A DNA stretch of 64,000 nt, from the NCBI GenBank assembly GCA_951406725.2, contig OX597827.1, positions 19,344,001 through 19,408,000 on the forward strand, written 5' to 3'. The position numbers and the translations under genes were made by a program. Under the pieces are notes generated by a model. It made no database searches. It was not told the origin of the DNA and worked only from the letters and a program-made list of their open reading frames with translations. The DNA comes from Octopus vulgaris (Eukaryota). Positions 25,211-56,068 of this stretch are shown piece after piece (the stretch's first letter is position 1; every line of letters starts with the position of its first letter).

Positions 25211-25542
25211 ATTACTCAAAGGAATTCCAACTCTGTCTGTTTATTATGTTTTATTTATATTCTTATAATATTAATATAGGATATAGAATATATGAAATGA
25301 AATATTGATTGTCTTCCTGTCACAATCTGAACCTGATGAATGCTTAAAAGCAAGAAAGTATACTAGTTCAATGAGAATAGACATTTAATATTTAATTTTC
25401 AATATTTCATTTGTTCAATAAGACAATCAATACTTCATTTCATTTCTTTCTTGCTATATATTCTATATTCCATATCCTATATTAATATTATAAGAATATA
25501 AATAAAACATAAAAAAACAAAGTTGGAATTCCTTTGAGTAAT
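25211..25542. mobile_element. Inverted-repeat Penelope-like pLTR structure
   Basis: Arms 25211-25315 and 25420-25542 (ATTACTCAAAGGAATTCCAAC... / ...GTTGGAATTCCTTTGAGTAAT) enclose a hammerhead motif. Confidence 0.65.
25328..25370 (+). ncRNA. Minimal type-I hammerhead ribozyme motif
   Basis: UGAAC-CUGAUGA-A-UGCU(UAAA)AGCA-A-GAA-AGUAUACU-A-GUUCA. Stem I 5 bp, palindromic helix III AGUAUACU, cleavage triplet CUA; the 10.1/11.1 position is an A-A mismatch. Confidence 0.7.
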
Positions 25543-26800
25543 CATCATCATCATTGTTTGACCGTGGTCGAGACAATGGAATTTACCATGCTACGCCAGA
25601 CTTCACGGTCCATCATGGCATTACGGAGGTCCTATTGCTGGATGCCTGTATCCCTGGAGATTACAACAGGGTAGGAGAGTGTGCGCCCTCTGGTATTGCG
25701 AGTAGATGGCTTCCAGAGGAGAGGAGTAGAAATTACTTCTTTTTCAGCTCTACTACAATGTCCAGCAAACTGGACTCTCCTACCTTTCACAAGAGATGAC
25801 ACAGGTGGTAGTTTCCCATATATTTGCATTTTGGTTGAATGGCGCTTCCACGAGAGATTTTGAGCTCTCATAAGGAGGCGAGTGTAAGTTCCATCCAACC
25901 GCCTCTCAAGCTTCTTTGATAAGGTCCAGGTTTCTGAGCCATATAGTAGAATTGGTTCGACTGTGGCTTTGAATATTTCAAGTTTGAAGTCTCTACTTAG
26001 ATTTGATGACCAGATCTTATGCATGTCATTACAGGCTGACCAGGCCATACCCTTTCTAGTTAGAAAGTCTTTTCCAGATGATGATATGTATGACCCAAGA
26101 TATTTATAATCAGAAATTAAGGGCACATTGTTGAGAGTATGGATGATGCAATCACTGTTGGACAGGCACTTGTTTATGTATTCAGTTTTGGCCTCATTGA
26201 GGTAAAGACCTACACAATTTGAGGCTTGTTCAAGAGATTGTAAAAGAGACTGGGCATTGGAGAGAGAATCACTGATAAGAGTGATGTCGTCAGCAAAGTC
26301 AGTGTCTGTCAAGTACTCAGCTGGGTGTCTGGAACTTCTTCTTGGTTTTATTTCAAAGCCCTTGCCAGAGATGGTATCAACTGACATACGTAGCACATAA
26401 TCAACAACAATGATGAAAAGAAATGGGGCGAGTGTGTCTCCCTGCAGTATTCCGGCTTTGATTGAGAAAGATGATGTTTCTCCATCAGGGGTTAAGATGG
26501 TTGAAGACGTATCTGTGTAGAGGACCTTGATGGCAGAAATGATTTTGTCTGGTATCCCATAGAGCTTAAGGATTTCAAACATCTTGTACCTATCTACAGA
26601 ATCGAACGATTAAATGCTTTTGATTCTTCAATAAGTCTGCGTAGGCATAGTATCTGGCTCAGCGTTGAGCGCCCATGTCTGATTCCATTTTGGTTCTTTC
26701 GGAGCAAAGGTTCAACAAAAAGGACAAGACGATTTAGGATCAGTTTGTTGTACAGTTTTGCAGCAATTGACATTAGAGATATACCCCTGTAGTTGGTGAC
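25543..26800 (-). mobile_element. 5'-truncated RTE/RTE-X-type LINE with 7-bp TSD
   Basis: NYRGISLMSIAAKLYNK; GILQGDTLAPFLFIIVVD; DFADDI; YKYLGS; LLYGSETWTL. (GAT)n tail; GAGTAAT duplicated at 25536-25542 and 26801-26807. Confidence 0.92.
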
Positions 26801-26821
26801 GAGTAATAAATATATATATTC

Positions 26822-27138
26822 TGAGACCCCCTTCGGTCATGACTGACCATGGGACTGCACCTAGAAAGTTACCCTCCCAGGCACAAGTCCGGGCAAGGTT
26901 GTTTATGGAAGACCAGCAGTTGCCCATGCATACCGGCCTCCCCTCTCCACACCACCAGTGTATCCAAGGGAAAGGCAAAGGGGCCAATACAGCTTGGCAC
27001 CTGCGACGTTGCAACGCATTTCTACGTGAAATAAAGTGTCTTGCTCAAGAACACAACATGCAGCCTGGTCCGAGATTCGAGCTCACAACCTCACAATCGT
27101 AAGCTTGACTCTCTAACCACTGAGCCATGCGCCTTCAC
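26822..27138 (-). mobile_element. tRNA-derived SINE family E
   Basis: GAAGGCGCATGGCTCAGTGGTTAGAG...GCTCGAATCTC...TTCTTGAGCAAGACACTTTA... on the minus strand. Confidence 0.85.
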
Positions 27139-27315
27139 ATATATATATATATATATATATATACGACAGGCTTCTTTCAGTTTCCCTCTACCAAATCCAC
27201 TCACAGGGCTTTGCTTGAACTAAGGCTATAGTAGAAGACACTTATATATATAAACCAACACTTTCATTGATCCCACACCCATACTTTACCACCAAATTAC
27301 CCCTCTCTCTCTCTC

Positions 27316-27367
<52 letters not shown>

Positions 27368-28664
27368 GTCACACACACACACTCATCCTGTTTACAGTAT
27401 CATTAATATTCTGATTTTCCACACTATCAAACATACCCTAATCCCCCAATGCCCTATTCATTCCTACTCACCTTGTACCTTGAAGGTCCATACTGATCCC
27501 TTATCACTTTCCCTATTTCCTATCACTTCCCAGCTTCACCTGATAACTCCTTCTCTCTTTTCAAAACTGTGAGAAGTTACATAGCTCCTCCACAGCAAGA
27601 AACCCATTCTGTTCTGTTTTTTTTCTCATAATTCACTCCCTCTACACCTCATCCCCAAGCATAAAGTTGCCTCCTTTGGGGTTCATAGTCTTACAAGCTA
27701 CATGGTGACCTCACTACTGCTGGTGGCATGAAAAAAGTACCCACAATTAAATTGCACTGCTAACACTGTAAGACACAATACTGACTTATAAAACCTTCAG
27801 TGTATTTGTTACTGTATTGTGGTTGCATAATGAAATAGGGTATCCCTACCAGCAATTAAGACATCCATACCAGTTGTCAGTAATGTGTTTAATGTTTAAA
27901 AAGTGGTATATCCAATAATATTACATCACTGTATTTAGTGGCTATTAAGTAATGTGTTTGTGAATGGTTAGTGGTACTGAAAAAGGAGCAATTACTCCTG
28001 AAATATGTATATACACCCATTGCCTACTCTTCTATCTTCAATCACGTTGTTTACATAGACGTATTCATATACAAAACATTGTAGCTTTAAGTGCTGGCTC
28101 TAATGTCTGTAGAAATATATATGTATACTCTTTACCCTTTTACTTGTTTCAGTTATTTGACTGCGGCCATGCTGGAGCACCGCCTTTAATCGAGCAACTC
28201 GACCCTGGGACTTATTCTTTTGTAAGCCCAGTACTTATTCTATCGGTCTCTTTTGCCGAACCGCTAAGTAACGAGGACATAAACACACCAGCATCGGTTG
28301 TCAAGCAATGCTAGGGGGACAAACAGACACACAAACACACACATGCATGTATATATATATATATATATATACATATATACGACGGGCTTCTTTCAGTTTC
28401 CGTCTACCAAATCCACTCACAAGGCTTTGGTCGGTCCGAGGCTATAGTAGAAGACACTTGCCCAAGGTGCCACACAGTGGGACTGATCCCGGAACCATGT
28501 GGTACGTAAACAAGCTACTTACCACACAGCCACTCCTAAGAAATATATATATATATATATTAATAAGTACATATTTCTATATATACTCTAACCTCATCCT
28601 GCTGCCAGCATCTCTGGAATTTGAAACGGTCACTAACATTAACGTAGTTCGCTGTACGAAGATC

Positions 28665-30400
28665 CAAGAAAAGACTGATTGAGTTCCTTGAAGACAACGA
28701 CCTGCTCTCTGACACCCAACATGGCTTTCGCCCGGGAAGGAGCTGTCTTACACAGCTTCTGTGACATTATGACTGGGTACTGTCATTTAATTAATGAACT
28801 GCGCAAAGGTTGATGTGGTATACCTCGACTTTGTGAAGGCATTTGACAAGGTCGACCATGGAATGATATGCCACAAAATACGGGGACTCAGCATCACTGG
28901 TAAAGTCGGAGAATGGCTGCATGATTTCCTGAAGGACAGGAGCCAAACTGTAGCAGCCAACGGAGCTCTCTCCACAGAGACACCAATAGTGAGTGGAGTG
29001 CCCCAGGGCACTATGCTGGGGCCACTGCTTTTCATGGTAGCCCTATCAGATCTGCCATCAGTGACAGAGGCAGCCAAGCTTACCAGCTGTACCGACGGCA
29101 CAAAAGTCACAGTCAGCAAGGCAACCTCTGATGCTACGCTCTTACAGAAAGATCTAGATGCCATCTATACATGGGCTGAGGATAACAACATGCAATTTAA
29201 CCCTTTAGTGTTCACATTATTCTACCCAAATTAATGCTTTTTCATCCACATTGTTTTGAACTAATCAGGCATTATCTTGTAGCTTTGAGATTTTGATGAG
29301 GTAGCTGTTAATTTTTAAAACGATATTGTAGGGTTGGTGTGAAAGACCAGATCTGACCAGTTTGAACATAAAACAGGCAGAATACTTTTGGCCGGATATG
29401 GCTGGTCTAAATGCTAAAGGGTTAATGCAAGTAAATTCCAGGCCGGCCTCTACCATTTAAGCACTGCTCAGGGATCACGACACCAGTACACTAGACCAAG
29501 TGGAGCAACGATCCCAGAATCAAATACGGTGCATGATCTTGGAATAGAAATGAGCAACAATGCCTCATTTCACACGCATATCAACAAAATGGTAGCAGTA
29601 TCCAGAAGACTGGCCGGTTGGATTCTGAGAACCTTCTAGATGAGGGATCAAGAAACTATGATGACACTAAGGAAGTCATTTATCCTCAGCCGACTGGACT
29701 ACTGCTCTCGGCTATGGTCACCTTATACTACAAGGACAATAGCAGAGCTTGAAGCAGTCCAATGACATTTCACCAAGAAAATTGCATCAATGGAACGACT
29801 GAGCTACTGGGACAGGTTGAAAGAGCTGCGACTCTATTCCCTGGAACGAAGGCGTGAGAGGCATGCACTGATATATATATATTTCTTTACTACCCACAAG
29901 GGGCTAAACACAGAGGGGACAAACAAGGACAGACAAAGGGATTAAGTCGATTCCATCGAACCCAGTGAGTAACTGGTACTTAATTTATCGACCCCAAAAG
30001 GATGAAAGTGATATATATATGGAAGGTACCGGAAGGACTGGTACCAAACTTTGGAATAAAGAGCTATACCAGACCACAAACAGGACATCACTGTGCTGAC
30101 TGCTTCATCTCGGGTAAGGACGATGTACTGCAATAGCTTGGGTTTCAAGGGACCACAGCTGTTTAACTGTTTGCTGAAGCATCTGAGGAGCCTCCATGGA
30201 GTGGGTGTAGATGTTTTCAAACAGCCGAGATCCCGGATGAGCCAATATCTAGTCAGGAAACTCAAAAGAGAGCAGTAACATCAAACTCTATCCTTCACCA
30301 AAAGCCGCTCCGACAAAGGTGGAGAGTGGAAAGATGATCACAATGGCGGTGCTCCTGCATGGCCACAGTCATTGGACTGAAACACATAAAAAAAAATAAA
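28665..30400 (+). mobile_element. 5'-truncated CR1-group LINE (RT to 3' end) with nested insertions
   Basis: QHGFRPGRSC; VYLDFVKAFDKVDH; SGVPQGTMLGPLLF; LDYCSRLWSP; NSLGFKGPQLFNCL. Contains stops and is interrupted by a MITE (29201-29421) and a SINE-D fragment (about 29883-30009). Ends GGCGGTGCTCCTGCATGGCCACAGTC...A-rich. Confidence 0.9.
29201..29421. mobile_element. piggyBac-type MITE
   Basis: TTAA TSD (29197-29200 / 29422-29425) and termini CCCTTTAG...CTAAAGGG. It splits the CR1 codons MQFN|ASKF. Diverged copies at about 14172-14395, 5065-5676 and 15940-16082. Confidence 0.9.
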
Positions 30401-30406
30401 AGAAAA

Positions 30407-30810
30407 GGCGTAGGAGTGACTGTGTGGTAAGTAGCTTGCTTACCAACCACATGGTTCCGGGTTCAGTCCCACTGCAGGCACCTTGGGCAAGTGTCTTCTA
30501 CTACAGCTTCGGGCCAACCAAAGCCTTGTGAGTGGATTTGGTAGACGGAAACTGAAAGAACTCCGTCGTGTGTATATATATATATATGTGTGTGTGTATA
30601 CGTTTGTGTATCTGTGTTCATCCCCCCCCCCAACATCGCTTGACAACCGATGCTAGTGTGTTTACGTCCCCGTAACTTAACGGATCGGTAAAAGAGACCG
30701 ATATAATAAGTACTAGGCTTACAAAGAATAAGTCCTCGAATAAGTTTGCTCGACTGAAGGCGTTGCTCCAGCATGGCCACAGTCAAATGACTGAAACAAG
30801 TGAAATAACC
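30407..30810 (+). mobile_element. Full-length SINE family B
   Basis: GGCGTAGGAGTGACTGTGTGGTAAG...GGTTCAGTCCCAC...GGCGTTGCTCCAGCATGGCCACAGTCAAATGACTGAAACAAG. Confidence 0.9.
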
Positions 30811-31345
30811 GAAAAAATTTTTCATTTTTGTGAAATATAGCTAAAGGGAGGTAACTGTGCAAAACATTTAAACATTTCGTTTTAGGATTTGGTTTGCAAG
30901 ATTCTTTATGTGAGTTCGTGTGTTGAAGCATATTGTGTCTGGAGAGAGTAATTTACTTTTAATGCCTTATTAACACACTCGCCAGCAAAATTTTCGTTGC
31001 ATCATGCAACCTTTCAACAGTTGTTGACTCTGTCTGTTATTCAAGCTGCTAGGCCTCACAGAGGCAATGTCTATTATTCTGTCAGGGTTCTAGTTTTTAG
31101 AAATTCACCCAAATGCAATCAAGTATAAAAATTTCAAAGTTAGTCATGTGTGAACTTTTTTGATCAAATACAAAAAAAAAGCATTGATTTTCATTGTTTT
31201 TTCGCAAAAACTCATCAGAATATTATACAGGACTATGGAGTTACAAAAAAGTTGTATGCCTAATGTATGCCTATGGTGAGATTCAGTAACCAGGTTTTGA
31301 GTTGGTGTTGTTTGCTATGGGTAAGTCTTCTTGAGCACAGCAGAG

Positions 31346-31455
31346 GGATTTTTTCGGTTTGAACGGCAGTTTTTTTCTAGCGGTGTCATATGTAATTGTC
31401 ACCCATAATTATGACCCTAGAATCGATAGGCTTAGTTAGGGTTAGGGTTAGGGGT
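31346..31455 (+). mobile_element. Left-end fragment of the TIR element seen complete at 46119-46536
   Basis: GGATTTTTTCGGTTTGAACGGCAGTTTTT...ATGACCCTAG...TTAGGGTTAGGGTTAGGG. Confidence 0.75.
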
Positions 31456-31510
31456 GTGTGTATATATATTTTATTGGCAGAATAAAAAGTCGATTGAAAT
31501 TTCTAAGGTA

Positions 31511-31723
31511 GTACTATTTAAGAAGAGTGGTCCCGGTGCGCGCACTCGCGCATCCGCGATAGCTAGTCGTGACTAGTCGATCTTTACTTTGTGTTTTTGT
31601 GTTTTATTTACTTTGTGTAAAAAAATTATTAATTTTGTATTTTATTTACTTTGCTAGGTAGTCACGACTAGCTAGTGCGATTGCGCGAGTGCGCGCACCG
31701 GGACCACTCTTCTTAAATAGTAC
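31511..31723. mobile_element. MITE-like element with perfect 42-bp CpG-rich TIRs plus an inner 16-bp inverted repeat
   Basis: GTACTATTTAAGAAGAGTGGTCCCGGTGCGCGCACTCGCGCA (31511-31552) is exactly inverted at 31682-31723. TAGCTAGTCGTGACTA (31560-31575) is inverted at 31659-31674. Confidence 0.85.
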
Positions 31724-32879
31724 CTTTTGTATTTTTGCACTGGAACATTGCAAACTTAAGTTACTGAATCCGATTTTGAATTCCATCTTACCAATACAGA
31801 CATGATTATGCAACAATATAGATATGATATAAAAACCATATAGACACGATATTTTTTTAATGAAGATTTGTATAAATAATTTTCAGATGCTGTAAATTAC
31901 GATTATATCGGAATTTAACATAAAAAAAGAAAATGATGTGACGCACACGTACGTACAGGAGAAAGTTATGTGGAAACAAAGTCGATGGGGCGAGGTACAT
32001 TTGTGTAGGTACGCCTGGAAACTGTTGTACCTCACTTCAAGAAAGTCCTGTGAGAAAGTTTTGAAAATGATGTTCATTAAACCATATATTTGTGTTACAA
32101 TTTGCGATCAGGGATCTTCTTACGCTGACCCTAATTAAATAATTAGGGAATCCTGGATTTAAAGTCCAACACGAAAACTTTTCAAAACAAATACTTGACG
32201 GTCACATTTAGTTTTGCCTTTTCTTCATGTGGCAGTAATTAACTGCATTTAATACAATTACTGAAAAACTTATTATTGGTAAAGAGTTATTAGGATTAGG
32301 TTTTGTTCCCGACAGGAATGATTTTCTTTAAACAAATTAAAAAGAGAAATTCCGATTTCTTAAAAACACGACGATACGAAAACAACCAGAAAGCTACAGA
32401 TGTTGAGATTCTCAACACATTCGCACGAACATTAATTACTTCAACACGGACTGTCAAATATTTGGTTTGAAAAATGTTTTCATTCAAGCACTAAAGCCAG
32501 TCCTCGATATTCCAATATCACTGATCATGATCGATATTAAACAAACAAATAAATATTTTCTTAATTGTCATGTAACATCAATAATTAAACTGCCGTCGAT
32601 TTCATTCAGAAAACGAAACATACATTAAAATACAAGATACTTTCTTCGCTCCCTGCAACGGTTCTATTGTATAAAATAAACGATCCTTCACACCTTCCAA
32701 CATCGAATCAGTATTTCTTTAAAACGAAACTCTCATAGAATTTCTTTAATTTTGCGACGAACAAGATTTTTACATTAATTGCATCCGAGAGTCTTTCTTC
32801 TTTCGTTATTATTATTATATAATTATTCCACAGAAAAGAAGGGTAGCCTTATATTTATAATTTGGTGAGAGAACAATTT

Positions 32880-33827
32880 TCATTCGATTAATCCCGTAAC
32901 TTTTTCGCTGAAGTTCCACAACTTTACAGCAAGTTGTTTATCCAGAGCCTGATTTGCCCATTCGTCTCTCTGGCATTCACTGTAGTAGCAACCAGATTGG
33001 TCTTTCGTCTCTTCACTAACAGAACAATATACAACAGTTTGACAACCTTCTTGGCAATTCTTGAAAAGTGATTTGAAAGCAGAGACCCTTTGTATCAGAG
33101 GAAATGAATTCAAAATGTTCCTACTTATATCTGTGTTTACTATTCCTGGGTGAACATAGTATATGTTGATATTAGTGTCTGACATTCGATTGCTAAATTC
33201 ACGGCAAAATAAAGCACATGCTAACTTACTGTCACAGTAGGCACCGTGTTGATGGAAAAACTCCGGTTTATTCATGTTGTCAAAATCGATTTTCCCGTAT
33301 TTGTAAATAACACTCCCGACAAAAACGACGCGGGGTGAATCAGACTTCTTTAATAACTCCAGTAGAAGATGTGTCAAAAGGAAGGGACCAAAATAATTGA
33401 CGCCCATATGCATTTCCAGGCCATCTTCTGTCTCAGCATACGGGTGGAAATAAACACCCGCATTGTTTATAAGGATATCCAAAGAGGTGATATGTTGCTT
33501 AATATTCTTGCAGAATGTCCGAATGGAATCGAAGCTTGAGAGATCAAGTTTTTCAACAAGTACAACACCTGAACCTAATTCGCTTAATTGTTCTGCAGCC
33601 GATTTTGCCTTATTTAAGTCCCGACATGCGAGGATCACTCGGGCCCCTCGTAGTAATAAATTACGGGCTGTTTCGAATCCGATTCCACAGTTACCTCCAG
33701 TAATAATAACTGTTTTGCCTTCCAGTTTAACAGGGCTGGTACAGGTGGCTCCTTTCATATAATAGCGAATCGACAAAGGTAAAATGATTATTATGGCTAC
33801 AACTGCCAAAATTGTCAACAACATCAT
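32880..33827 (-). CDS. RDH14: Retinol dehydrogenase (classical SDR, RDH11-14 family, closest to RDH14), 315 aa, intronless CDS
   Basis: N-terminal hydrophobic anchor; TGGNCGIG Rossmann motif; ACR (NADP(H) preference); LINNAG; catalytic Ser (VGSV) and YCDSK (YxxxK); HPG; KLW..SE C-terminus. SVIYKYGKIDFDNMN resembles the RDH14 segment as I recall it. Orthology is less certain than family assignment. Confidence 0.93.
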   Translation of the reverse strand: MMLLTILAVVAIIIILPLSIRYYMKGATCTSPVKLEGKTVIITGGNCGIGFETARNLLLRGARVILACRDLNKAKSAAEQLSELGSGVVLVEKLDLSSFDSIRTFCKNIKQHITSLDILINNAGVYFHPYAETEDGLEMHMGVNYFGPFLLTHLLLELLKKSDSPRVVFVGSVIYKYGKIDFDNMNKPEFFHQHGAYCDSKLACALFCREFSNRMSDTNINIYYVHPGIVNTDISRNILNSFPLIQRVSAFKSLFKNCQEGCQTVVYCSVSEETKDQSGCYYSECQRDEWANQALDKQLAVKLWNFSEKVTGLIE

Positions 33828-34254
33828 TAATATACTGAGATTTCGACAGAAACCAGGACTAACACAGCTTTTTCACAGCACAACTTTCACAGTTCTGACG
33901 TTTATAGTACAAAGGTGCGTCAGAACTACATATCATCCCACATGTAATTCGACAAGGTCGGCGCATCGTAAGCTCACGTGCCTAATGATTAAGTTCATCT
34001 TTATAACGAACAAGACAAATTATATTTTCATTTCTATTTTTCTGAGTCACGGCTGGTAAGACAAGCATTTCTTTTCAGCAGCCTGAGCATAAAAACTGCA
34101 GGCGATGTTTGAGTTTAACGTACCATTTCAGTTTCTTGTAAGCTTTTTTGACAGCAGTCGGAGACTTTTTTTTTTTGTTAAAGGTGTACTGCTGATCACT
34201 TGTTTGTGAGTAGGGACAATTCAAGTTTGTTGTCGTTGTTATTATTTAACATAG

Positions 34255-35665
34255 AGACCTCACTCTCCAGTGGGCCCTCTTCGCAACCCTCACACGAACC
34301 AGATCACTGACGACCCCAAGGAATGCGCAGAACTCATTGCCAAGTGCTATGCAAACATATTCACTGTCGAAAGTCAAAATGTACCATCTTCACCATCACT
34401 AACAGCAAACTCCATAACAACTATGGAATTTACACCTGAAATGCTGCGACGTCACCTTCAAAATAAGCGCAACTATGCCTCCCCTGGTCTCGATGGAGTT
34501 ACATACCTGCTTCTCAAACGTGGCAGGCACTTCCTTTTACACCAGCTTTCTATTTTCTTCCAGTACTGTCTCAACAATGGTGCTACTCCGGAGCAGTGGA
34601 AAACTGCCAGTGTCATTCCTCTGTTCAAAAAGGGTGACCGCACATCACCTGTCAACTATCGCCCAGTCAGTCTCACTAGCTGTATTGCAAAACTGATGGA
34701 ATCGTGTGTCAGAGAAACACTCTGGAACTTCTGGAGCTCTCACAGTCTCATCCGACCCTCACAATATGGATTTGTCCCTAACTCCAGCTGCAGTGACCAG
34801 CTTGTCGAGTTCCTTGAGGACATTACTCAGATCACTGACAGTGGCTCATGGGTGGATGTTGTCTACCTTGACTTTGCTAAGGCTTTCAACTCTGTGCCAC
34901 ACAAAAGGCTTATGGTGAAACTCTCTGCAATGGGTGTGGGGGATGACCTTTTTAACTGGTTGAAATCCTTCATCCTCAGCCGAAAGGAGGTAGTCACAGT
35001 TCTAGGACAGCACTCTACACCATATGAGATGTCATCGGGTGTACCACAGGGATCTGTCCTTGGTCCCCTCCTGTTTGTGGCATACATTAATGACATAGAT
35101 GCCAATTTAAAGAATGCCACAGTATTGAAATATGCAGACGACATCAAGCTGTACCTTGAAATCAAGAGGACTGATCCTGATGTCTACAACTCTTTCCTGC
35201 AATCAGACCTAGACACAATGCAGCAATGGATCACAGACTGGCAACTGAAACTGGCTGTGGACAAGTGTACCACCATGCATTTTGGGAGAAAAAACTCTGC
35301 GTCCACATACTCCCTTCACAACACTGATATCAAGAAATCCTCTTGCGAGCGTGACCTAGGCATCACTGTCAGCAGTGATTTGCGTTGGACAAAGCATATC
35401 TCTAAAATTGTCAAGAAGGCCGAGGGTGTCTTGGCATCACTCAGCAAGACTTTTGTTAGCCGCTCTCCAGCCATCTATTTAAAACTGTATACAGCTATGG
35501 TACGACCACACTTGGAATTCGCATCATCAGTTTGGAATCCCTATCTTGCTCAGAACATTGACCTCCTGGAATCTGTCCAGAGACGTGCAACCAAACGCAT
35601 ACCCTCCATCAGACACCTACCATATTCTGAGCGCCTTGTTTCCCTGGGCATGGATTCACTGAAGC
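34255..35665 (+). mobile_element. Young 5'-truncated CR1-group LINE with an uninterrupted RT reading frame
   Basis: ORF 34270-35793 contains SPGLDG, NYRPVSLTS, QYGF, YLDFAKAFNSV, SGVPQGSVLGPLLF, KYADDIKL, ERDLG and VRPHLEFASSVWNP. The last ~40 aa are read-through into a different element. Confidence 0.95.
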
Positions 35666-35732
35666 TTGATTCGTTAGCTACTGCACGCATTTTTTTTCTC
35701 TCCTTCTTTCCGTGTTTTTCTCTCTCTGTGTA

Positions 35733-35770
35733 TCTTTCTGTTGAAGAGCGTAGGCTCGAAACGTTAAAGA
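35733..35770 (+). ncRNA. Hammerhead-like motif with core variant CUGUUGA, in a Penelope-like terminal fragment (about 35667-35870)
   Basis: UCUUU-CUGUUGA-A-GAGC(GUAG)GCUC-GAA-ACGU-U-AAAGA. Same architecture as 56034-56068, but A6 is replaced by U. Confidence 0.55.
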
Positions 35771-35867
35771 CTTGTTTTATTTATATTTCCTGAGCGCCAT
35801 ACTAATACAATTGTTCGTTTGTTTTCCACCTGCCTTCGTCTTTTGTTTATTTTCATAAAGCTTCCCG

Positions 35868-35902
<35 letters not shown>

Positions 35903-35978
35903 CGTAGATATACACATATATATATATACATATATACGTGTATTTACCCACACACGCATATATCCTATATATATATGC

Positions 35979-36009
<31 letters not shown>

Positions 36010-36709: not shown

Positions 36710-36848
36710 GGATTTTTTCGGTTTGAACGGCAGTTTTTAACATAATTTCTAGGTAACTAAAAAATTTTAAACTTCGTATACAGTGTTTATAACACATCTT
36801 TTTCTCTTGGCTTTATTGAGAAAATTCTATAGTTTGTAAGATATTTTA
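36710..36848 (-). mobile_element. Right-end fragment of the 46119-46536 TIR element
   Basis: GGATTTTTTCGGTTTGAACGGCAGTTTTTAACATAATTTCTAGGTAACT is the reverse complement of about 46487-46536. Confidence 0.8.
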
Positions 36849-37016
36849 CAAACAATAACTCTGAGCACCTTTTCAAACTCCACCTGTCTAACACCCGTGG
36901 ACATGTTTTCAGCCAAACGTTTACCAATTTCAACAAATTTCATTCAAATTTGATGTCTCTGTCACTTATTTTGGTTTGAAATAAAGCGCTTGATCATTTA
37001 ATAATCCTAAGTTAAT

Positions 37017-38004: not shown

Positions 38005-38370
38005 ATACTTGAGCACCTTTTCAAACTCCACCTATCTAACACCCATGGACATAGTTACAAAGTCAGAAAACAGCACAGCTCCCATGACTTCAGGAAACAT
38101 TTTTTCATGCTGAGAGTTGCTGAAGCCTGGAACAAACTGCCGGCATCAGTTGTTAGTTGTCGGAGCACTGCATCCTTCAAAACTTCCATGCTTTCTGAGA
38201 TTCGCCAACACTACACCTGATTTTCTCCCCTCCATACACACGCAAGCATGTATCTGACTCATACATTGTTCGCTTTCCAGACATTTGTACATTACTGCAT
38301 GTACTTTATATGCACTTTCTGACAAGTTGTGGTGCACCTGAACACTATACAAAAATTTCATTATTATTAT
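38005..38370 (+). mobile_element. CR1 ORF2 C-terminus plus 3' UTR fragment
   Basis: EHLFKLHLSNTHGHSYK...FFMLRVAEAWNKLP motif and (ATT)n tail. A short matching piece lies at about 36850-36910. Confidence 0.85.
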
Positions 38371-40797: not shown

Positions 40798-40863
40798 CCT
40801 ATACCAGTTATCAAGTGGGAGAGGGAGGAGAGACAAACAGACACAAAGCCACAATAAACAAAC

Positions 40864-40923
<60 letters not shown>

Positions 40924-40949
40924 TCTATAGTTGTTTCTCTTTTTAATTT

Positions 40950-41421
40950 AATAACTACTGAGTTTTTTAAATTTTGGGATCTTCCTGGAATGCTTTCTCA
41001 CAAACTGATATTGAAGAAAGGAGTTCCAATCATGCTTTTGAGAAATCTGGATCCCCCAAAGTTTTGCCATGGAACAAGATTGATTGTCAGTCAAATGCAT
41101 CCACACCGTTTGGAAACAACAATCTTCACTGAGCAAGGAAAGGGAGAAAATGTGTATATTTCAAGAATTCCACCGATTCCAGCAGACATGTCCTTAGAAT
41201 TCAAGTAACTTCAATTTCCAGTAAGAGTTAATTTTGCAATGTCAATTAACAAGAGTCAAGAACAATCACTCAAAATTGTTGGACTTCACCTCCTGCAGCA
41301 CAGCTTTTCCCATGCTCAGGTCAATGTTGATTGTTCCCAAGTTGAAAATTGCTGCAATTTCTTCATACTCACACTAAATGGTAAAATCAAGAATATTATT
41401 TATCCTGCTGCTTTACAGTAA
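40950..41421 (+). pseudogene. Helitron PIF1-like helicase C-terminal fragment (stop-interrupted)
   Basis: HKLILKKGVPIMLLRNLDPPKFCHGTRL...IPPIP...FK*LQFPVRVNFAMSINKSQEQSL...FSHAQ...NIIYP matches the Helitron RepHel helicase end. Confidence 0.9.
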
Positions 41422-44904: not shown

Positions 44905-46600
44905 ACAGCGAGAAAGGTGGCTCTCCTAACTCAGACCTGGTCTGAGCGGAAGCTGTCCTTGAAAGGGAGGGCGGAGGTTGCAGAGGTGTTTATCACCTCT
45001 GTAATCACTTGCCGCCTGACCGTCATGCCTTGCCCCGATTTGTGGCTGAACAAGCTGGAACGCATGCTCTTTCGCTTTTTGTGGAGGGGCAGCAGACTTC
45101 TTGTAAGATTGCTGCCAAAAGCTGTTGAAGGGTGGGTTAGGGATGCCGTGGCTAAAAATGCGCTCAGGCTTAGGCACCTCTGGCTTTACCTGGACGGTGA
45201 GCAGGTGTGGTCTCCATTCGTCAAGCTGTTATTTCCACAGTTCACATCGTTTACCAAACTGAAACCCATGGATCAAGTGTAGACCGAGGTTAGGCGAGTG
45301 GCATGTAGAGTGCCATCAGGCACTCGTGCTTCTCTCCCAGCCGGGCAACGGTGGTGGCGGGGGTACTACCTCGTTCTTCTATAGAGGGTTAGTAGAGTTT
45401 AAGTGTGACGACGTCCTGGAAGAAACCCTAGGCTTCGATGAAGATCAACTGGCCAGCCTGTTCCAAAGAACATTCGGTCTGGGGCCTATGGATAATTACC
45501 AAAAGTTCCTGGCGTGGCAATGTTACAGAGGAGCTTTACCGGTTCGAGATAAGCTCTTTAGACATGGGTGTGCACCTTCGCCAGATTGTGCCAGATGCGA
45601 GAGGGACAGTGAAAACTGTCCTGCACGCGATTGTGCAATGCCCCAAGGTGACTGAACTCTGGGCTTATGTCGAACACCTGCTGTCGTATTCGAGAAGAGT
45701 ACAACTGTCGAGCGAATCTGTAATTAAGATCATTCCGGTAGTTGCTGTGGCGAAAGAGGTAGTATGTAAGACGAGAGTGAAAGGAATTGCAACAGGCATG
45801 TTCATCTCCAGTTTCGAGCTAATCGACTTTTTCGTTTTCCACATGAAACGGAAAATAAGGCTGGGTGGAAGTCTATAAGCAAGTATGTTGCGAGTGAAAG
45901 AACCTGTTTAAACGAGAATGTAAAAAAGGAGAAAGCAAAGTCTTCAGTGTGAGTATGTGGTTTGTGGGGTCAACCACATCCTCCGCTTCATTTCTCGTTA
46001 ATCACTCATTCTCATTTAATTGTATGTATTTTAATTGTTTGTTTATTCATACGTTTCGTCTCATTCGATACCCTGACCCTAACGTTTGTTTTGTCTGTTC
46101 CCATATTGTCCCCTCTTTGGATCTTTTCGACTTGAACAGCAGTTTTTTCTAGCGGTGTCATATGAAATTGTCACCCATAATTATGACCCTAGTATCGATC
46201 TATTGCATTTCAATCTCTTTTAGGGTTAGGCTTAGGGGTGGGGGGAAGGATATCTTTTTTTCTTCACAAATGTAAATAAACCCAATCTGTTTCTTAAACG
46301 AGTGACATATTCATACAACACAGAATGTTTTTTTTACCTCAATGGACGTCAGTGATTGGTTGAAATTGCAGAAATTGAAGAAAAAACAACAACAATCTTA
46401 CAAACCATAGAACTTTTCTCAATAAAGCCAAGAGAAAAAGATGTTTTATAAACACATTCTACCAGTATACGAAGTTTAAAATTTTCTAGTTACCTAGAAA
46501 TTATGTTAAAAACTGCCGTTCAAACCGAAAAGATCCCGTTTGTTTTGTCTGTCCCCGTATGGTCCCCTTTTTTCTCAACCTTATGGTAAATAAAGAAATT
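44905..46600 (+). mobile_element. 5'-truncated L1/Tx1-clade LINE (post-RT region, zinc-finger-like domain, 3' UTR)
   Basis: TWSERKLSLKGRAEV (shared with the 8.5-kb copy); WQCYRGALPVRDKL...CARC...HAIVQCP. The 3' end is AATAAAGAAATT, and the UTR is interrupted by a TIR element. Confidence 0.85.
46119..46536. mobile_element. Non-autonomous TIR DNA transposon (unclassified), about 29-bp TIRs, internal TTAGGG-like repeats
   Basis: GGATCTTTTCGACTTGAACAGCAGTTTTT ... AAAAACTGCCGTTCAAACCGAAAAGATCC. Confidence 0.85.
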
Positions 46601-48295: not shown

Positions 48296-48446
48296 ATGTC
48301 GACCCCGTCTCAAGACCCTTACCCGGATAAGGAGAGAGTCAGTAGCACTGAGTTACCCATGGAAGAACGTAGCCAGACCCGAGCACGTCCCGTGCCACCC
48401 GTACCCGAGAGACCAGCCTCTATCAGGGTGTCTAAACATGGCCAAG
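48296..48446 (+). CDS. Candidate first coding exon of an unidentified gene (MSTPSQDPYPDKERVSSTELPMEERSQTRARPVPPVPERPASIRVSKHGQ, phase 1)
   Basis: ATCATG start, 50 open codons of GC-rich non-repetitive sequence, and a consensus donor AAG|GTAAGT at 48447. It is preceded by a CT-rich promoter-like region. No downstream exon was identified. Confidence 0.6.
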
Positions 48447-48744
48447 GTAAGTGACACACACATTTCAAATACGCACTTAACGATTTATGTTCTAGCATTT
48501 CGTTTGAAAGGACAATTGAGTGAAATCCGTGTGAACACGTACGCGTAGAAAATGTTGATCGGGGAAGGATGTGGACTGGATTTATGGATGCAGATGTGTC
48601 TGGGTAATTATAAAACAGCAATTATAGACCATCAACTGTTTTTCAGTTTCTCTCTCTCTAAGGTACGCGCACGCGCACACATCCTCTGTGTCTCGCTCGC
48701 GCGCACACACATATATGTCTATAGCCGAGTTAAACTCCGCCTAT

Positions 48745-48783
<39 letters not shown>

Positions 48784-48785
48784 CG

Positions 48786-48809
<24 letters not shown>

Positions 48810-48817
<8 letters not shown>

Positions 48818-49298
48818 CGCACACATACTCGTCACATATATCACACGCACACTCGTCACAATATATACACACGTACACACACACACTCGACACAATATAC
48901 ACACACACACTCGTCACATTATATACACACGCACACACACTCGTCACAATAAATATATATATACACACACACATACTCGTCACAATATATACACACGCAC
49001 AGACACACTCGTCACAATATATATACACGCACACACACACTCGTCACAATATATATACACGCACACACACACTTGTCACTATATATACACGCACACACAC
49101 ATACTCGTCACGATATATACACACGCACACACACTCGTCACAATATATATATACACACACACGTACTCGTCACAATATATACACACGCACACACACTCGT
49201 CACAATATATATACACGCACACACACACACATACTCATCACAATATACACACGCACACACTCGTCACAATATATACACACGCACACACACTCGTCACA

Positions 49299-49330
<32 letters not shown>

Positions 49331-49575
49331 GTACTCGTCACAATATATACACACGCACACACATACTCGTGACAATATATACACACGCACACAACTCGTC
49401 ACAATATATACACACGCACACACTCGTCACATATATACACACACATACTCGTCCCAATATATACACACACATACTCGTCCCAATATATACACACACACAT
49501 ACTCGTCCCAATATATACACACACACATACTCGTCACATATATACACACGCACACACACACATACTCGTCACAAT
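48810..49575. repeat. Compound minisatellite: constant ACTCGTCACAATAT core plus variable (AT)n(AC)n
   Basis: More than 20 copies of the core with units of about 25-40 bp. It explains the spurious 385-aa and 310-aa ORFs. Confidence 0.95.
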
Positions 49576-50307
49576 GTAGGACGCACCCATGTTATTATTA
49601 TGACACAGATCTATGTATAAATGCGAATGCGTACAGAGATGTGTGTTTATGCGCTGGTTTCATGTTTTATACGTGTGTAATGTGTGTGTGTGTGTATAAT
49701 AAATTGTGATTATGTATTTGACTTGATATGTTTATAAACCGTCTCCAATTAGCTCCACACCTTTCTGAGTATCTGCATCGCTAATTAATAATTGTTCAAT
49801 GGTGATTTGCCCGGTGTTTTTCACTCAGCTAGATCGATGGCTATATATATATGAATGTCCCTACGTCTATATCTGTTATTGTAGTAAATATATTCTTGTA
49901 TTTTTCGGTAGACAATCGACTTAGAGGTGTGTCTGATTTTATATTTACTGTTGGTGCTTCTCTTTGTGTGTTAACACAAATTTGGAGAATGTGTAGAATA
50001 TTTTATAATATAGGAAACAGTGACTGAATAAACCGATTTCGTGTGTGTGTGTGCGGGCTATGTCTAATATCTATTATAAATTTTTGACAGTGACTTCGAA
50101 GTCACGCGTGTGTGTGTGTTAACGTTAACAGAATTTTACTCAGTATTTTTTTTTTAGTAGAAAACATTAAACGTTTTCATACAAAGAAAATTGTACAAAC
50201 GTATATATAATATATTATAATATATATATATATATGTATGTATGTGTGTGTTGATATATGTGTATATTATGCTTGTATATATATATGTAACTAGTACCGA
50301 ATGATCG

Positions 50308-50364
<57 letters not shown>

Positions 50365-51269
50365 AGAGAGAGAGAGAGAGCAATAAGAAAATGGAGGGAT
50401 CAATAGGTGGTTCGTCAACTTTTAGACATTATATTATGTTAACTTATTTATTTATTTACTAAAATGACAATTACAAGAATATACATACATGTATAACATA
50501 TTATGCTTTACGTATAAAATATATTAATGTATAAAGATACCAGTAATTATTAAAATATAACATACAGGAATATAAATTGGGAAAAATGCAATTAGCTTTC
50601 GGAAAACACCCACCAAAATTTAACTCGGTTACACATCAGCTGACCAAATAACTTTTTAACCAAGTTGGGTTTTTTTATGACACCTAAACAAAAAAACCCT
50701 AGTACCTGAAACTGACATTCCTAACTAGACACACCTAACCACAAAGTTTTACACACACACACATACTCTCTCTCTTTACTTGTTTCAGTCATTTGACTGC
50801 GGCCATGCTGGAGCATCGCCTTTAGTCGAGCAACTCGACCCCGGGACTTATTCTTTGTAAGCCCAGTACTTATTCTATCGGTCTCTTTTTGCCGAACCGC
50901 TAAGCGACGGCGACATAAACACACCAGCATCGGTTGTCAAGCGATGTTGGATGGGACAAACACAGACACACAAACATACACGCACACACACACACACATA
51001 TATACACATATATATATATATATATACGACGGGCTTCTTTCAGTTTCCGTCTACCAAATCCACTCACAAGGCTTTGGTCGGCCCGAGGCTATAGTAGAAG
51101 ACACTTGCCCAAGATGCCACGCAGTGGGATTGAACCCGGAACCATGTGGTTGGTAAACAAGCTACTTACCACACAGCCACTCCTGCGCCATAACTTGCAT
51201 TCAAGAAGCTTTGAAACTTTTTCAAGGCTGACATCTATTTCAAAGAAGTACAAAACTCTTATTCTCCTT

Positions 51270-51595
51270 CAAAAGTAGGATCTTCTGGCTTCAATGAACC
51301 TATTGAAGTGTTCCAGCTTCTTTCTGAGGGCCCCACGGAAGTCATCCAAAACGAAGGTGTTCAGGACCCTTATCACAACCTCCTTTATCTCCCCCTTTAG
51401 TTTGGGAAACAACCAAAACTTACAGGTGCAAGGGCTGGACTGTAATGATGATGAGGGACAGTTTTGATGCCCCATCTTTGTTGAGCAGTTGGTTACCAAG
51501 ATGGAAATGTGCACTGGTGCATTGTCCTGGTACAGGTGTTCTTCTGGTCTTTTGTGATGAAATCTCTTCATACACTCTTTCAAATCCTCGCTCAA
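51270..51595 (-). pseudogene. Tc1/mariner transposase C-terminal fragment
   Basis: QDNAPVH...FWLFPKLKG matches mariner DNAxxH and YSPDLAPxDFxLFPxLK; degenerate and frameshifted. Confidence 0.75.
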
Positions 51596-53588
51596 ATGGT
51601 GCTCAGATGGAGCTGTTAGCGCTCAACTGGCACAGGTGCCAGTCATCGAATATGGTTCAATTTCGATTTCACTTTCCCCAACATATCTTCGAAAGCAAAG
51701 TTTAGTGTCCAATGAAGGGAGTTTGGCATGGGTGCCAGTCGTCAAATTTGGTTCGATTTTGAATTCAATTTCGATTTCACTTGCCTCAACAGGTCTTTGC
51801 AAGCAGAGTTTTGTGTCCAAAGAAAGAAAGGTATGCATAAGTGGGCTGGCTACATCCCTGGTAAAGGCTACGGGTTATGGTCTCACATGCCCTGCTGGGT
51901 CTTCTCACGCACAGCATACTTCCAAAGGTCTCAGAAATATAAATACAATAAGAATAATAATATCAGGACATAACAACAGGTGTCTTTCGACTGGGGATGA
52001 ATTGAATTCAGCTGCCATGTGTGGAAATGAAGCCTTACGGCAGAGATACAAAACTTTCATGAACACAGGGAAGAATATCGTCGCAGCTCATTTATCAACG
52101 TGCAAGTGGCCAAGCATTTCACAGACACTTGTACCCTTAATGTAGTTCTTGGGGAGATTCAGCGTGACACAGAGTGTGACAAGGCTGGCCCTTTGAAATA
52201 CAGGTACAACAGTATCAAGAAGAAAGAGTGAGAGAAAGTTGTGGTGAAAGAGTACAGCAGTATGAACCAGACATTATAAAGTTAGACTTTTCTGTTTATA
52301 TTTTCTCTGATGAACTGGAATACCTATGATTCGAATTTCATCAAAATTGCAGATGAGGGTTATTTCCCTCTTTACACACCCTAAAAAAATTGTAATCATG
52401 ACACATATATCCCATACTACTGATTTTTATGCATAGATTCCAAAATTCCTGTCTTATAGAACCTGTTAAAAGGATTTTGCTCCTGAAAAATGGAGGTCAT
52501 GGAGCTCTAAAATGGGGGTGGGTGTCTTAATGTCACCCAGAAAAGTTGAATTGTTGAGAATCTTTTTAACTTGGGTCTTATAATCTATTGTTTGAATGTC
52601 TTTGAAATAGGAAATATATGTATGTTCACTGGGTTTGTAAAAGGGAGCAAAGCTACAGGAAATGGAAAGATGAATGATCACAATAAGCAGTCAGTTACCC
52701 TACCCTAGTCGTTACCACTCCCAATGTAGGATTCCTCACCATACAGGTGACAGGCACAGCTGTAAGATGCATTACAGATCTATAGCAATTGGAAGGGCGT
52801 GACCCAACTGAAATAAACATTAACAACTGTGTGACGTGAGGGCTAATGAGAAATGAAAGTGTCACTTCTGGAATTTGCAAATGACTACTATACTGATACG
52901 TAACTGGACAGAATAAATTTACAATCTATAAATGTCTTTGAATAACCAGTCACTCACCTGGGAAGGCCTTGAAATCAATGTTACCATCTGGGGACTCTGT
53001 GACCCAGTGATAATAAAAAGACTGAAAGGAGGTCTGCAACCAAATAACTTTACTCAACTCTTTGCAACTGAATCAGTGGAGGCAAAGATGCGTCTCATTT
53101 ACTTGACAGTTTATGCACCACCCTGCAGAAAACACAACTCTTCTGTTTTAGCCTCAGACCAACCAAAGCCTTGTCAGTGGGTTTTGTAGACAGAAACTGA
53201 AAGAAATCAATCATATATATATATGTATGTAGGTATGTAAGTGGTAATACTAAGTGATCATTGACACTTATTACGACTTGATGTGGTTAGCCATAACCTG
53301 GAATTCACTTGAGAGCCAACCTAGCACCTGCCTGAATAATTTATCCCTGTACACTCATGTTTATATATATATATATATGTGTGTTTGTGTGTGTGCGTGT
53401 GTCAATATAGTGAGTATATACAAATGTATGACAGATATACAAGTGCATCTTTTCCTTGACATATGGACTCTTAGACAACTAAGTTATGATATATATATAT
53501 ATCTATCTATCTATATATATACATATATATATAGATAGATAGATAGATATGCATCAAATGAAATAAAAAACAGAACACAAAGGATGTC

Positions 53589-53680
53589 GCGGTACACGTG
53601 TTTCAAGTTTTATACAACAACCTATTCTTACATCAATGTATAATCGACATAACAGGTGGTTTAAAGCTCTCTTCAGCCGC
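53589..53680 (-). ncRNA. Type-I hammerhead ribozyme motif with extended loop 2
   Basis: Minus strand: GCGG-CUGAAGA-GAGCUUUA(about 49 nt)UAAAACUU-GAA-ACACGUGU-A-CCGC. Intact core, palindromic helix III ACACGUGU, cleavage triplet GUA. Confidence 0.75.
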
Positions 53681-53879
53681 ATGCAATTGCTATACCCTCT
53701 CACCTCTGCTACTACGTGCATATACAGGTGCTTACACTTATCAAGTATTCACCCTGAATTCATATAGGTAGGTTGGTAGGTAGGCAGGTAGGCAGGCAGA
53801 GAGAAAGAGAGAGATCTGTCTCTGATCTCACATGCTAGTCATAGAATACACTGTCAGAAGGAGGAGGATGGCATTCCTA

Positions 53880-55810
53880 AAAGAAACTAGCTTGCTGACA
53901 AACCTGTAATAATGGCTTCTATTCAATGAAGGGCTGCCTCACATAGCTACTACACCATTTTTACTGGGTTCTGAAAAACAGATCAGCCAATCAAATGTGT
54001 ATATGGATATATATCTGGACTTTGCCAAAACCTTTGATGATGTTGATCATAAGTCACAAACTGCATGGCCTTGATATCCTTGGAAAACCAAGGGGGTGAC
54101 TGCACAACTTTTTAAAAGGCAGAAGTCAGGGAGCCACGGCCAATAGTGCCCTTTCTCTGTGAAGAGACATCAATTTTCAGTGGAGTCCCCCAGGGAATTG
54201 TACTGGAACTGCCTGCTACTGTTGCAGCGGAGGCACATGGCCTAGTGGTTAGAGCAGCAGACTGACGGTCGAGGGATCGCAGGTTCGAATCTCAGACCGG
54301 GCGATGTGTGTGTTTATGAGCGAAACACCTAAGCTCCATGCGGCTCCGGCAGAAGGTAATGGCAAAACTTCTGCTGATTCTTTCGCTACAACTTTCTCTC
54401 ACTCTTTCCTCCTGCATCTTGCAGCTCACCTGCGATGGACCAGCGTCCCGTCCAGGTGGGGAACCTATATGCCAAGAAACCGGGAAACCGGCCCTTATGA
54501 GCCAGGCATGGCTCGAGAAGGAACAAACAACAACAAAAAAACAAAACAACAAGCTACTGTTGCAGTGGTTCTTACAGACATGTGTGCAGTCACACAGTCA
54601 GCTACTCTCACCAGCTTTGTTGACAAAACAAAACTCTCACAAGCTGTTAAGAACCATAATGGCACCATAAAACTAAAGAATGTCCTAAATGCAGTATACA
54701 AGTAGGCTGGTGGAAAATTTACAACATTGAACTGAATGCTGTTCAATAAAAATTTTCAAGCACTCTGATATCAGCCCATGAACAGATAGCAATCTGGATA
54801 CACAGAACCAAAGTTGACACATAACCTAGGAGCCCACGTAAGTAATGATGCATCATTCATCATCATCATCGTTTAGCGTCCGCTTTCCATGCTAGCATGG
54901 GTTGGATGGTTCAACTGGGGTCTGGGAAGCCAGAAGGCTGCACCAGGCCTAGTCTGATCTGGCAATGTGTCTACAGCTGGATGCCCTTCCTAACGCCAAC
55001 CACTCCGTGAGTGTAGTGGGTGTTTTTTACGTGCCATTGGCACGGAGGCCAGGCGAGGCTGGCAACGGCCACGATCGGATGGTGCTTTTTACATGCCACC
55101 GGCATGGAGGCTAGTCGGGGCGGCGCTGGCAACGGCCACTTTCGGATGGTTCTCTTACATGGCACTGGTATCACAGCTACAATTTCCATTGATGTTGATC
55201 AATTTTGATTTTGATTCCACTGTGCATATTACTGAGATGGCAACACTGCAGGCAAGTGACTGGCTGGTTGTGAGATCATGTAGAACAAGGAAAAGGGAAA
55301 GTATGCTACTACCTATGGAGAATATTTGTTCTCAGTAGCCTGGATTGCTGTTCCCCACTATGGTCACTACAAAGTTCGAGTTAATAGCAGGACTAGAGGC
55401 AATCCAATGCCACTACACCAGGAAGGTTAACTCATTGCAACAGATGAGCTGTTAGGAGAGGCTGAAAGTGCTGACTCTACTTTCTAGGGATAAGACCTGA
55501 AAGATATGCAGTGTGTTTGTGTGTGTGTCTAGTTCTCAAATTTCGGAATTGAAAGTTATACCAACCACTGGAGTTCATGTCACTGCAGAGTACCGAAGAC
55601 CCTATCCTCTCCATCTTGAGTTAGGACATAATATTGTAACAGCTTAGATTTTTAAGGGCCCGCAACTTTTCGACACTTTTGCCAGACCACTTCAGGGATC
55701 TGTGAAGAGCAGATAAGGATGTATTCAAGAAATATTTGGACAAATTTCTAAAGTACCAGATGAACTTGCATCACCACAGGAAAAAAAAGAAAGAGTAGCT
55801 TTGGCCAACT
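53880..55810 (+). mobile_element. Old degenerate CR1-group LINE remnant with nested SINE C and RTE tail
   Basis: IYLDFAKTFDDVDH; SGVPQGIVL; ...CNSLDF.GP. Many stops; same family as 28665-30400. Confidence 0.75.
54228..54552 (+). mobile_element. SINE family C with 13-bp TSD
   Basis: GCTACTGTTGCAG at 54215-54227 and 54553-54565. Confidence 0.93.
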
Positions 55811-56033
55811 CGTTACTTCATCAGAAACGGTTCTGGAGCGAGCTGGGAAATGAGTGTTAAGTAGAAACCGATCACATTAAAGGTTGTACCCCAGCGTAGC
55901 CATAGAAACCAGTAAAAGTAAGTATATATTTGTGTGTGAAGGTAATCCAAACATGAAAACACAAAGAGAAAACACAACAACGCGAGGACGTGGAACAAGT
56001 ATAGTGTTATTGGACGCTCAGGAAATAAGGAGG

Positions 56034-56068
56034 GTTTAACGTTTCGAGCGGAGCTCTTCGTCAGAAAC
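56034..56068 (-). ncRNA. Minimal type-I hammerhead ribozyme motif in a Penelope-like terminal fragment (about 55925-56145)
   Basis: Minus strand: GUUU-CUGACGA-A-GAGC(UCC)GCUC-GAA-ACGU-U-AAAC. Helix III is the palindrome ACGU; cleavage triplet GUU. Confidence 0.75.

Follow-up and report, generated by a model that had tools for sequence, protein, structure and literature searches.

A window of Octopus vulgaris DNA, 64,000 nucleotides (nt) long (NCBI GenBank assembly GCA_951406725.2, contig OX597827.1, positions 19,344,001 to 19,408,000; coordinates below count from its first letter), contains four motifs, H1 to H4, with the layout of hammerhead ribozymes. We consider it quite probable that these are minimal type I hammerheads of three repeat families, and that they are lone pseudo-long terminal repeat (pseudo-LTR) ends which short or 5'-truncated copies of Penelope-like elements (PLEs) have left in TA-rich octopus DNA.

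Four Palindromic Hammerhead Motifs

The motifs were collected from both strands of the window with a descriptor consisting of a stem I of at least 4 base pairs (bp), CUGNNGA, a stem II of at least 3 bp, GAAA, and U-H. The descriptor was composed after the motifs had been seen and is therefore somewhat fitted, and it left a palindromic helix III optional. It matched exactly four times, and helix III was palindromic in all four matches:

25328..25370, + strand: H1, minimal type I hammerhead motif (descriptor scan)
35733..35770, + strand: H2, minimal hammerhead motif (descriptor scan)
53588..53681, - strand: H3, hammerhead motif (descriptor scan)
56034..56068, - strand: H4, textbook-like minimal PLE hammerhead motif (descriptor scan; published consensus)

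An earlier, sequence-only reading of this DNA had claimed four palindromic hammerheads, and these are the same four, with the palindromes as written there and with its coordinates corresponding to the low ends of the spans. It had also named a shuffled background as the comparison to make. The background came from 400 dinucleotide shuffles, made block by block over positions 1-59,700 (the terminal satellite being excluded): matches of any kind averaged 0.41 and four of them were reached in 1/400, while palindromic matches averaged 0.005 with a maximum of one, two being reached in 0/400. Run in this way within the window, the comparison places the motif count far above chance. What speaks for chance matches in repeat-rich DNA is that a search of Rfam (E<=1) gave 69 matches, nearly all of them microsatellite matches to miRNA models and none to a hammerhead family, that folding energies are unremarkable, and that the descriptor was fitted afterwards. 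In addition to the shuffles, this explanation has to contend with features that the scan did not require and that fit the published consensus (the palindrome in 4/4 and an extra base after A9 in 3/4), and with the fact that both footprints tested, those of H3 and H4, are discrete high-copy repeats. It is already refuted for H2 and H4, and overall we regard it as extremely improbable.

All four motifs have helix III cut down to the palindrome, from A15.1 to U16.1. The type I order of the core, CUGANGA...GAAA...UH, is present in H1, H3, and H4, whereas H2 deviates with a U at position 6. An extra nucleotide between A9 and position 10.1 is found in H1, H2, and H4 but not in H3. H4 has a stem I of 4 bp, CUGACGA, an extra A after A9, the G10.1-C11.1 closing pair of helix II, the palindrome ACGU, and the triplet GUU, with a predicted cut after U56038. 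Every element of it fits the metazoan PLE consensus given in the accessible part of the source, which comprises CUGANGA-H, G10.1-C11.1, GAAA, a palindrome, and UH (Cervera and de la Peña 2014; PMC4209133). H2 has the same closing pair, palindrome, triplet, and extra A together with a stem I of 5 bp, but in its CUGUUGA the conserved A6 is replaced by U (A6U). In H1, a 5 bp stem I and intact CUGAUGA and GAAA elements surround a 4 bp helix II that is closed by a U-A pair with a spare A on either side; helix III is the 8-nt palindrome AGUAUACU, and the UA cleavage site has its predicted cut after A25365. H3 combines intact CUGAAGA and GAAA elements with a GC-rich stem I of 5 bp, a G-U closing pair, the 8-nt palindrome ACACGUGU, and a UA cleavage site with a predicted cut after A53593; its helix II is a rod-like arm of 65 nt (53605-53669). 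The CUGNNGA/GAAA layout described by the sequence-only reading therefore stands, but the A6U of H2, the long helix II of H3, and the U-A closing pair of H1 had been overlooked.

A relaxed scan of the window, allowing one core mismatch, found no further credible copy. Its extra candidate at 27977 (+) has a changed G8 and a "palindrome" that is a run of TA, and was rejected. Also rejected were a second CUGAUGA near 55823 (-), which is antisense to the end of an open reading frame (ORF) of a long interspersed nuclear element (LINE) and has its partner elements absent, and a TA-ending repeat at 24547-24780 (-), which shares GCGGCUGAAGA with H3 yet has no hammerhead fold. The latter repeat lies 550 nt from H1 and has a U-rich end running into a TA tract.

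Cassettes and Families

Each motif stands alone in a non-coding cassette of 200-330 nt, with ends that were placed by eye and partly guided by the adjoining tracts:

25211..25315, no strand assigned: left arm of the H1 cassette, an inverted copy of the cassette 3' end (alignment)
25420..25542, + strand: right arm (3' end) of the H1 cassette, abutting the (CAT)n tail of an opposite-strand LINE (alignment)
35668..35869, + strand: H2 cassette, ~200 nt, U-rich, with a (TA)n tract at its end
53552..53760, - strand: H3 cassette, ~210 nt, high-copy repeat with an approximate 5' end, ending in a TA/TATC tract
55935..56143, - strand: H4 cassette, ~210 nt, very high-copy repeat flanked on both sides by CA/TA tracts

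Judged by sequence, the four motifs form three families, since H2 and H4 are related: they are 73% identical over 81 nt (E 3e-6), have an identical helix II stem, and differ in stem I by one C-G/G-C swap, as seen in an alignment of just these two octopus copies. This corrects the sequence-only reading, which had spoken of stems differing in sequence. The cassettes of H2, H3, and H4 are ~200-210 nt long, begin 70-85 nt ahead of the core, and end 0-3 nt from TA/CA/TATC-type tracts, while 11% of random positions lie within 25 nt of such a tract. Borders of TA-rich or microsatellite DNA had been claimed for all four; the surroundings of H1 are AT-rich, but the nearest tract is 676 nt away. A bias toward TA-tract targets and inverted 5'-truncated copies are both reported for PLEs in the accessible part of PMC8557442, and the tracts at H2, H3, and H4 correspond to the former. 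The H2 cassette is likely a solo pseudo-LTR.

The layout of H1 allows a different explanation, in which the cassette is a DNA element resembling a miniature inverted-repeat transposable element, with terminal inverted repeats enclosing a hammerhead-like sequence by chance. The inverted arms, ~105 nt long, are indeed well matched: aligned with the reverse complement of 25420-25542, the left arm gives 99 identities, 3 mismatches, and 24 gap columns, so that 99/102 aligned letters are identical. However, the motif between the arms keeps its core intact and has a 5 bp stem I and an 8-nt palindrome, the inverted arms reproduce the inverted 5'-truncated copy that is a described PLE layout (PMC8557442, accessible part), and 5/120 metagenome loci listed (below) have pairs of motifs on opposite strands. 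We therefore think a DNA element of this kind improbable.

Abundance in Sequencing Runs

Four public sequencing runs were compared at 80% likeness with positions 53548-56143, which cover the H3 and H4 families. The flank has a median near 150 in run X6 (DNA, organism C), while summed contig depth reaches ~490,000 for H3 and ~2.5 million for H4. This corresponds to ~3,200-fold and ~16,000-fold over the flank as contig depth, not as a copy number. Two repeats of the same stretch that resemble short interspersed nuclear elements (SINEs) lie 27,000-fold and 110,000-fold over the flank median. What the depth does show for H3 and H4 is discrete footprints of high copy.

The same run bears on the long arm of H3. 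At position 53608, a C-A mismatch of H3 becomes C-G with the letter carried by 97% of the depth; the majority letter at 53656 makes a U-G pair where this copy has C-G (both taken from 40 of 170 rows of differences). Depth stays high in the middle of the arm, and the 65-nt arm likely belongs to the H3 family.

Two further observations come from these runs. The ratio of depth in run X8 to that in X6 is 0.0006 for the H3 family, while H4 and the two SINE-like repeats have values of 0.012-0.045; X8, from organism A, is guessed to be RNA but may be DNA, and the low ratio could mean that the lineages differ in H3 copy number or that H3 is depleted from RNA. A contig of single-copy depth in X6 spans 55678-55964, comprising a LINE tail and 30 nt of the H4 cassette. 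It hints that the H4 insertion is common to organism C, although it falls one base short of the bridging rule.

It is possible that the cassettes are non-autonomous, SINE-like derivatives of PLE pseudo-LTRs, comparable to retrozyme monomers, that borrow PLE proteins. This would refine the solo pseudo-LTR explanation and is compatible with it. It is consistent with the uniform ~200-210 nt cassettes of H2, H3, and H4 and their starts 70-85 nt before the core, with an H4 depth that nears that of the SINE-like repeats, and with retrozymes occurring as dispersed monomers, which the accessible part of bioRxiv 10.64898/2026.07.22.740005 describes as PLE derivatives. On the other hand, retrozymes are defined as tandem and the window has no tandem units, and solo pseudo-LTRs of fixed length are equally expected from ordinary truncated PLE insertions. 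We regard it as a tentative refinement, with a real but lesser chance of being right. What stands of the short retroelements suggested by the sequence-only reading is ORF-less cassettes of abundant families (H3 and H4), most likely solo pseudo-LTRs; "retrozyme-like" in the strict sense does not, as there is no tandem array.

The Same Motif Type Behind PLE Reading Frames in Other Animals

A search of metagenome contigs for the H2/H4 core gave at least 120 loci with at least 125 motifs, and the counts given here are among the matches listed. The contigs are largely animal-derived as judged by their genes (89/108 ORFs scanned). The same pattern had 0 matches in viral contigs, and an H3-specific pattern had 0 matches in metagenome contigs. 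The loci listed have the core alone in common with the octopus cassettes. Position H17, which lay outside the search pattern, is not G in 118/125 motifs. Stem I pairing was likewise outside the pattern: among 61 distinct variants listed, the first and the second pair are each formed in 50, and all three pairs are formed in 21/61, compared to a shuffle mean of 6.4 and a maximum of 19 in 2,000 shuffles. In these motifs of other animals, stem I covaries. A covariance model was built from 43 metagenome motifs. They had been pre-filtered from the 125 listed, keeping those with H other than G, a stem I of at least 2 bp, and a stem II of at least 4 bp, a choice that inflates the pair counts of the model. 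It matched H4 and H2 at E ~1e-8 and no other copy below E 0.4, a result that is partly circular as its loci were fetched with a pattern derived from H2 and H4.

Recognizable reverse transcriptase (RT) or GIY-YIG ORFs adjoin the motif at three of the loci listed. With these as queries, PLE RT or endonuclease sequence was found in 16/120 loci (including the three query sources). At 11/120 loci motif and endonuclease share a strand, with the endonuclease end upstream, and in 10 of these 11 the distance is 91-285 nt. In the other 104/120 loci PLE sequence was not found; 48/120 loci are shorter than 1.5 kb. Five of the 120 (L013, L026, L059, L061, and L077) hold two motifs on opposite strands, 55-450 nt apart, which is the inverted pseudo-LTR layout, and 0/120 hold two motifs on the same strand. 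The metagenome loci listed therefore repeat the pattern of the octopus window, namely a pseudo-LTR motif that is usually solitary.

Several results weigh against the PLE assignment of the octopus motifs. Taken whole, the motifs have no folding advantage over shuffles (z +0.6 to -1.4), as is expected where helix III is almost absent. The helix II of H3 (-13.4 kcal/mol, z -2.0, equalled by 9/200 shuffles) is only modestly better folded than shuffled sequence and is beyond the published length range. In the metagenome motifs, the third pair of stem I is formed in only 33 of the 61 variants listed. The depth evidence concerns the H3 and H4 families only and is contig depth, not copy number, and two raw DNA runs (X22 and X23) contributed only 46 and 97 reads, with the unique flank barely covered. 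Finally, none of the three families could be tied to an octopus PLE ORF, protein searches with the cassette translations having given no relevant match. The PLE origin therefore rests on the architecture of the motifs and on other animals.

Genomic Setting

The window itself was surveyed for PLE proteins. A Pfam scan took 175 of the 374 candidate ORFs (at least 62 amino acids; short exons would escape it) and found pieces of LINE-type RT but no GIY-YIG family among these 175, and four pieces of PLE proteins, compared by tblastn with positions 1-59,700, gave nothing better than E 0.25. Within this scope, the earlier statement that no PLE ORF is adjacent is borne out. An ORF with RT and GIY-YIG is likely absent from the window, and the cassettes are likely pseudo-LTR remnants rather than complete PLEs. 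None of the tandem arrays found in 24,000-64,000 contains a motif, and neither self-comparison of the window nor the relaxed scan found a second copy alongside any of the four. About one third of the window is masked as repeat or simple sequence. Three coding features lie near the cassettes of H1 and H2:

25543..26836, - strand: LINE RT remnant beside H1, not PLE (Pfam RVT_1 E 1e-13 and 8e-8)
32880..33830, - strand: host gene, retinol dehydrogenase 11/12-like, uninterrupted ORF (adh_short E 2e-35)
34255..35667, + strand: LINE RT ORF interrupted by the H2 cassette (RVT_1 E 2e-36)

The LINE remnant beside H1, which we take to be RTE-like, gave no match to the PLE protein queries. The ORF interrupted by the H2 cassette is presumably CR1-like, and its C-terminus picks up again at 36838-36904 and 38011-38220. 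A 43-nt piece of this C-terminus is present twice (36862-36904 and 38010-38052; 95%), around a nest of later insertions. The retinol dehydrogenase ORF is the only host gene found in the window. Its best matches are proteins of Octopus and place the window in that genus: it is 88% identical to an O. bimaculoides protein over 100% of its length and 100% identical to an O. vulgaris protein over 63%. Related proteins in O. vulgaris number at least two (89% and 100% identity), and the ORF may therefore be a recent duplicate or a retrocopy. Relative to its strand, H1 and H2 are antisense, and H3 and H4 lie on the same strand 20-22 kb upstream. Elsewhere in the window, a fragment of a Pif1 helicase 2B domain at 40858-41205 (+) and a 140-nt piece repeated at 36710-36842 and 46395-46536 are possibly Helitron remnants, and a satellite at 59927-63945 comprises 82 copies of a 49-nt unit with 96% matches.

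Proposed Cleavage and Choice of Partner

In the parent element, tandem pseudo-LTRs would place two motifs on one RNA. The palindromes of both motifs would then pair to form helix III, and the 5' stem I arm of each motif would pair with the 3' arm of its partner. Such a double hammerhead could excise an RNA of unit length, which the PLE RT and GIY-YIG endonuclease would insert elsewhere. A lone copy, being without a partner in cis, would cleave weakly, if at all; in monomer form, helix III comes at a computed cost of +2.9 kcal/mol in H1 and +2.4 kcal/mol in H3. From this analysis, the four motifs are most likely inert relics, and H2 would be doubly so because it carries A6U in addition to its lone state.

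Reasoning from the topology, each site of a type I double hammerhead would take its UH and its 3' stem I arm from the other motif, so that helix III and stem I would both have to match between partners. In a test of the double-hammerhead register, a full fit was obtained for same-family pairs only. H2 with H4 have ACGU in common but just three A-U pairs in stem I, while two H3 copies pair over their 8-bp palindrome with -10.3 kcal/mol and over the arms of stem I with -6.5 kcal/mol. The ACGU duplex is weak (computed -1.7 kcal/mol) and the palindrome occurs in 29/56 published motifs across phyla, as counted from the available rows of PMC4209133, and it cannot therefore label a family. The idea of the palindrome as a family-specific pairing code consequently fails for ACGU, which H2 and H4 share, and it is stem I that separates the families. 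The 8-nt palindromes could discriminate between families, as an expected by-product of the dimer fold.

Dispersed copies might nonetheless be active in trans, with transcripts from different loci of a family joining by helix III and stem I to cut each other, host pre-mRNAs included. The exclusive fit of same-family pairs and the strong H3-H3 duplexes argue for this, a high copy number would make a partner likelier, and non-tandem copies of Xenopus retrozymes are reported to be depleted from introns (bioRxiv 10.64898/2026.07.22.740005, accessible part). Against this, ACGU pairs weakly and is the commonest animal palindrome in the available rows of PMC4209133, H2 carries A6U, and even covalently linked dimers cleave weakly. 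In the accessible parts of the two sources, a lone minimal hammerhead of S. mansoni showed no cleavage in vitro and its dimers and trimers low cleavage (PMC4209133), and of nine Xenopus dimers one cleaved and eight did not at all (bioRxiv 10.64898/2026.07.22.740005). The sequence-only reading had further imagined that copies in introns cut host transcripts, but no motif was placed in an intron and the sole host gene found runs antisense to H1 and H2. We hold activity in trans to be unlikely. A version confined to H3 is equally unlikely: it would make H3 an undescribed, high-copy octopus PLE hammerhead with a conserved 65-nt rod, the copies of which cut each other in trans within the family by means of the 8-bp palindrome and the GC-rich stem I, as partner-dependent RNA cutters across the genome.

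Comparison With Known Hammerhead Systems

Lone PLE hammerheads are already published for many animal genomes (PMC4209133, accessible part), and what is described here is not a new system. Minimal PLE hammerheads number thousands per genome, are mostly single, belong to several families in each genome, and have an extra base after A9 and a palindrome; single motifs away from full PLEs number ~2,000 in S. mansoni, 4,000 in coelacanth, and 9,000 in X. tropicalis (PMC4209133, accessible part). The 56 motif rows available there include two molluscs (Lottia and Crassostrea) and no cephalopod, while Penelope is listed among the families expanded in coleoids (PMC8967140, accessible part). Their role in vivo is still termed a mystery (PMC7761336, accessible part). 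Our literature search, which was thin on subscription papers, turned up nothing on these octopus families, on a pairing code, or on a helix II of such length.

The octopus motifs resemble the published minimal hammerheads in their type I order, CUGANGA with an extra base, short stem I, GAAA, palindrome, and U-rich flanks, molluscs included (PMC4209133, accessible part). The 8-nt palindromes and UA site of H1 and H3 recall the rows for Drosophila, Aedes, Adineta, Marsupenaeus, Hydra, and Saccoglossus in Fig. S3 of PMC4209133, where available, and H1 is particularly like the Hydra row with its U-A closing pair, long palindrome, and UA site. H3 is without an extra base after A9, like two of the published rows. 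These PLE rows with a small palindromic helix III differ from H1 and H3 in sequence, and H3 has in addition its long arm. Two deviations stand out: the A6U of H2 is found in none of the 56 available rows, and the longest helix II there, as judged by eye, has ~23 nt compared to the 65 nt of H3. As far as the sequences go, this long helix II appears to be the single feature that falls outside what has been published. The published descriptor bounded the size of the stem (PMC4209133, accessible part). An H3-type helix II would escape such descriptors, and ribozymes of this kind may be undercounted.

The retrozymes that lack LTRs form the other point of comparison. They too are ORF-less, AT-rich units of 150-450 nt with a type I hammerhead, they are proposed to be derived from and moved by PLEs, and families with many dispersed monomers have been described (PMC7229834; bioRxiv 10.64898/2026.07.22.740005; accessible parts of both). 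However, these retrozymes are tandem repeats by definition, with mostly canonical hammerheads and circular RNAs, whereas the four octopus cassettes are non-tandem. The octopus thus joins the animals with genomes strewn with lone PLE hammerheads, and the data suggest at least two abundant families there. Although the four particular copies are not essential, abundant families with palindromes of differing length make the octopus a handy set for comparing strand bias in introns and homodimers with heterodimers.

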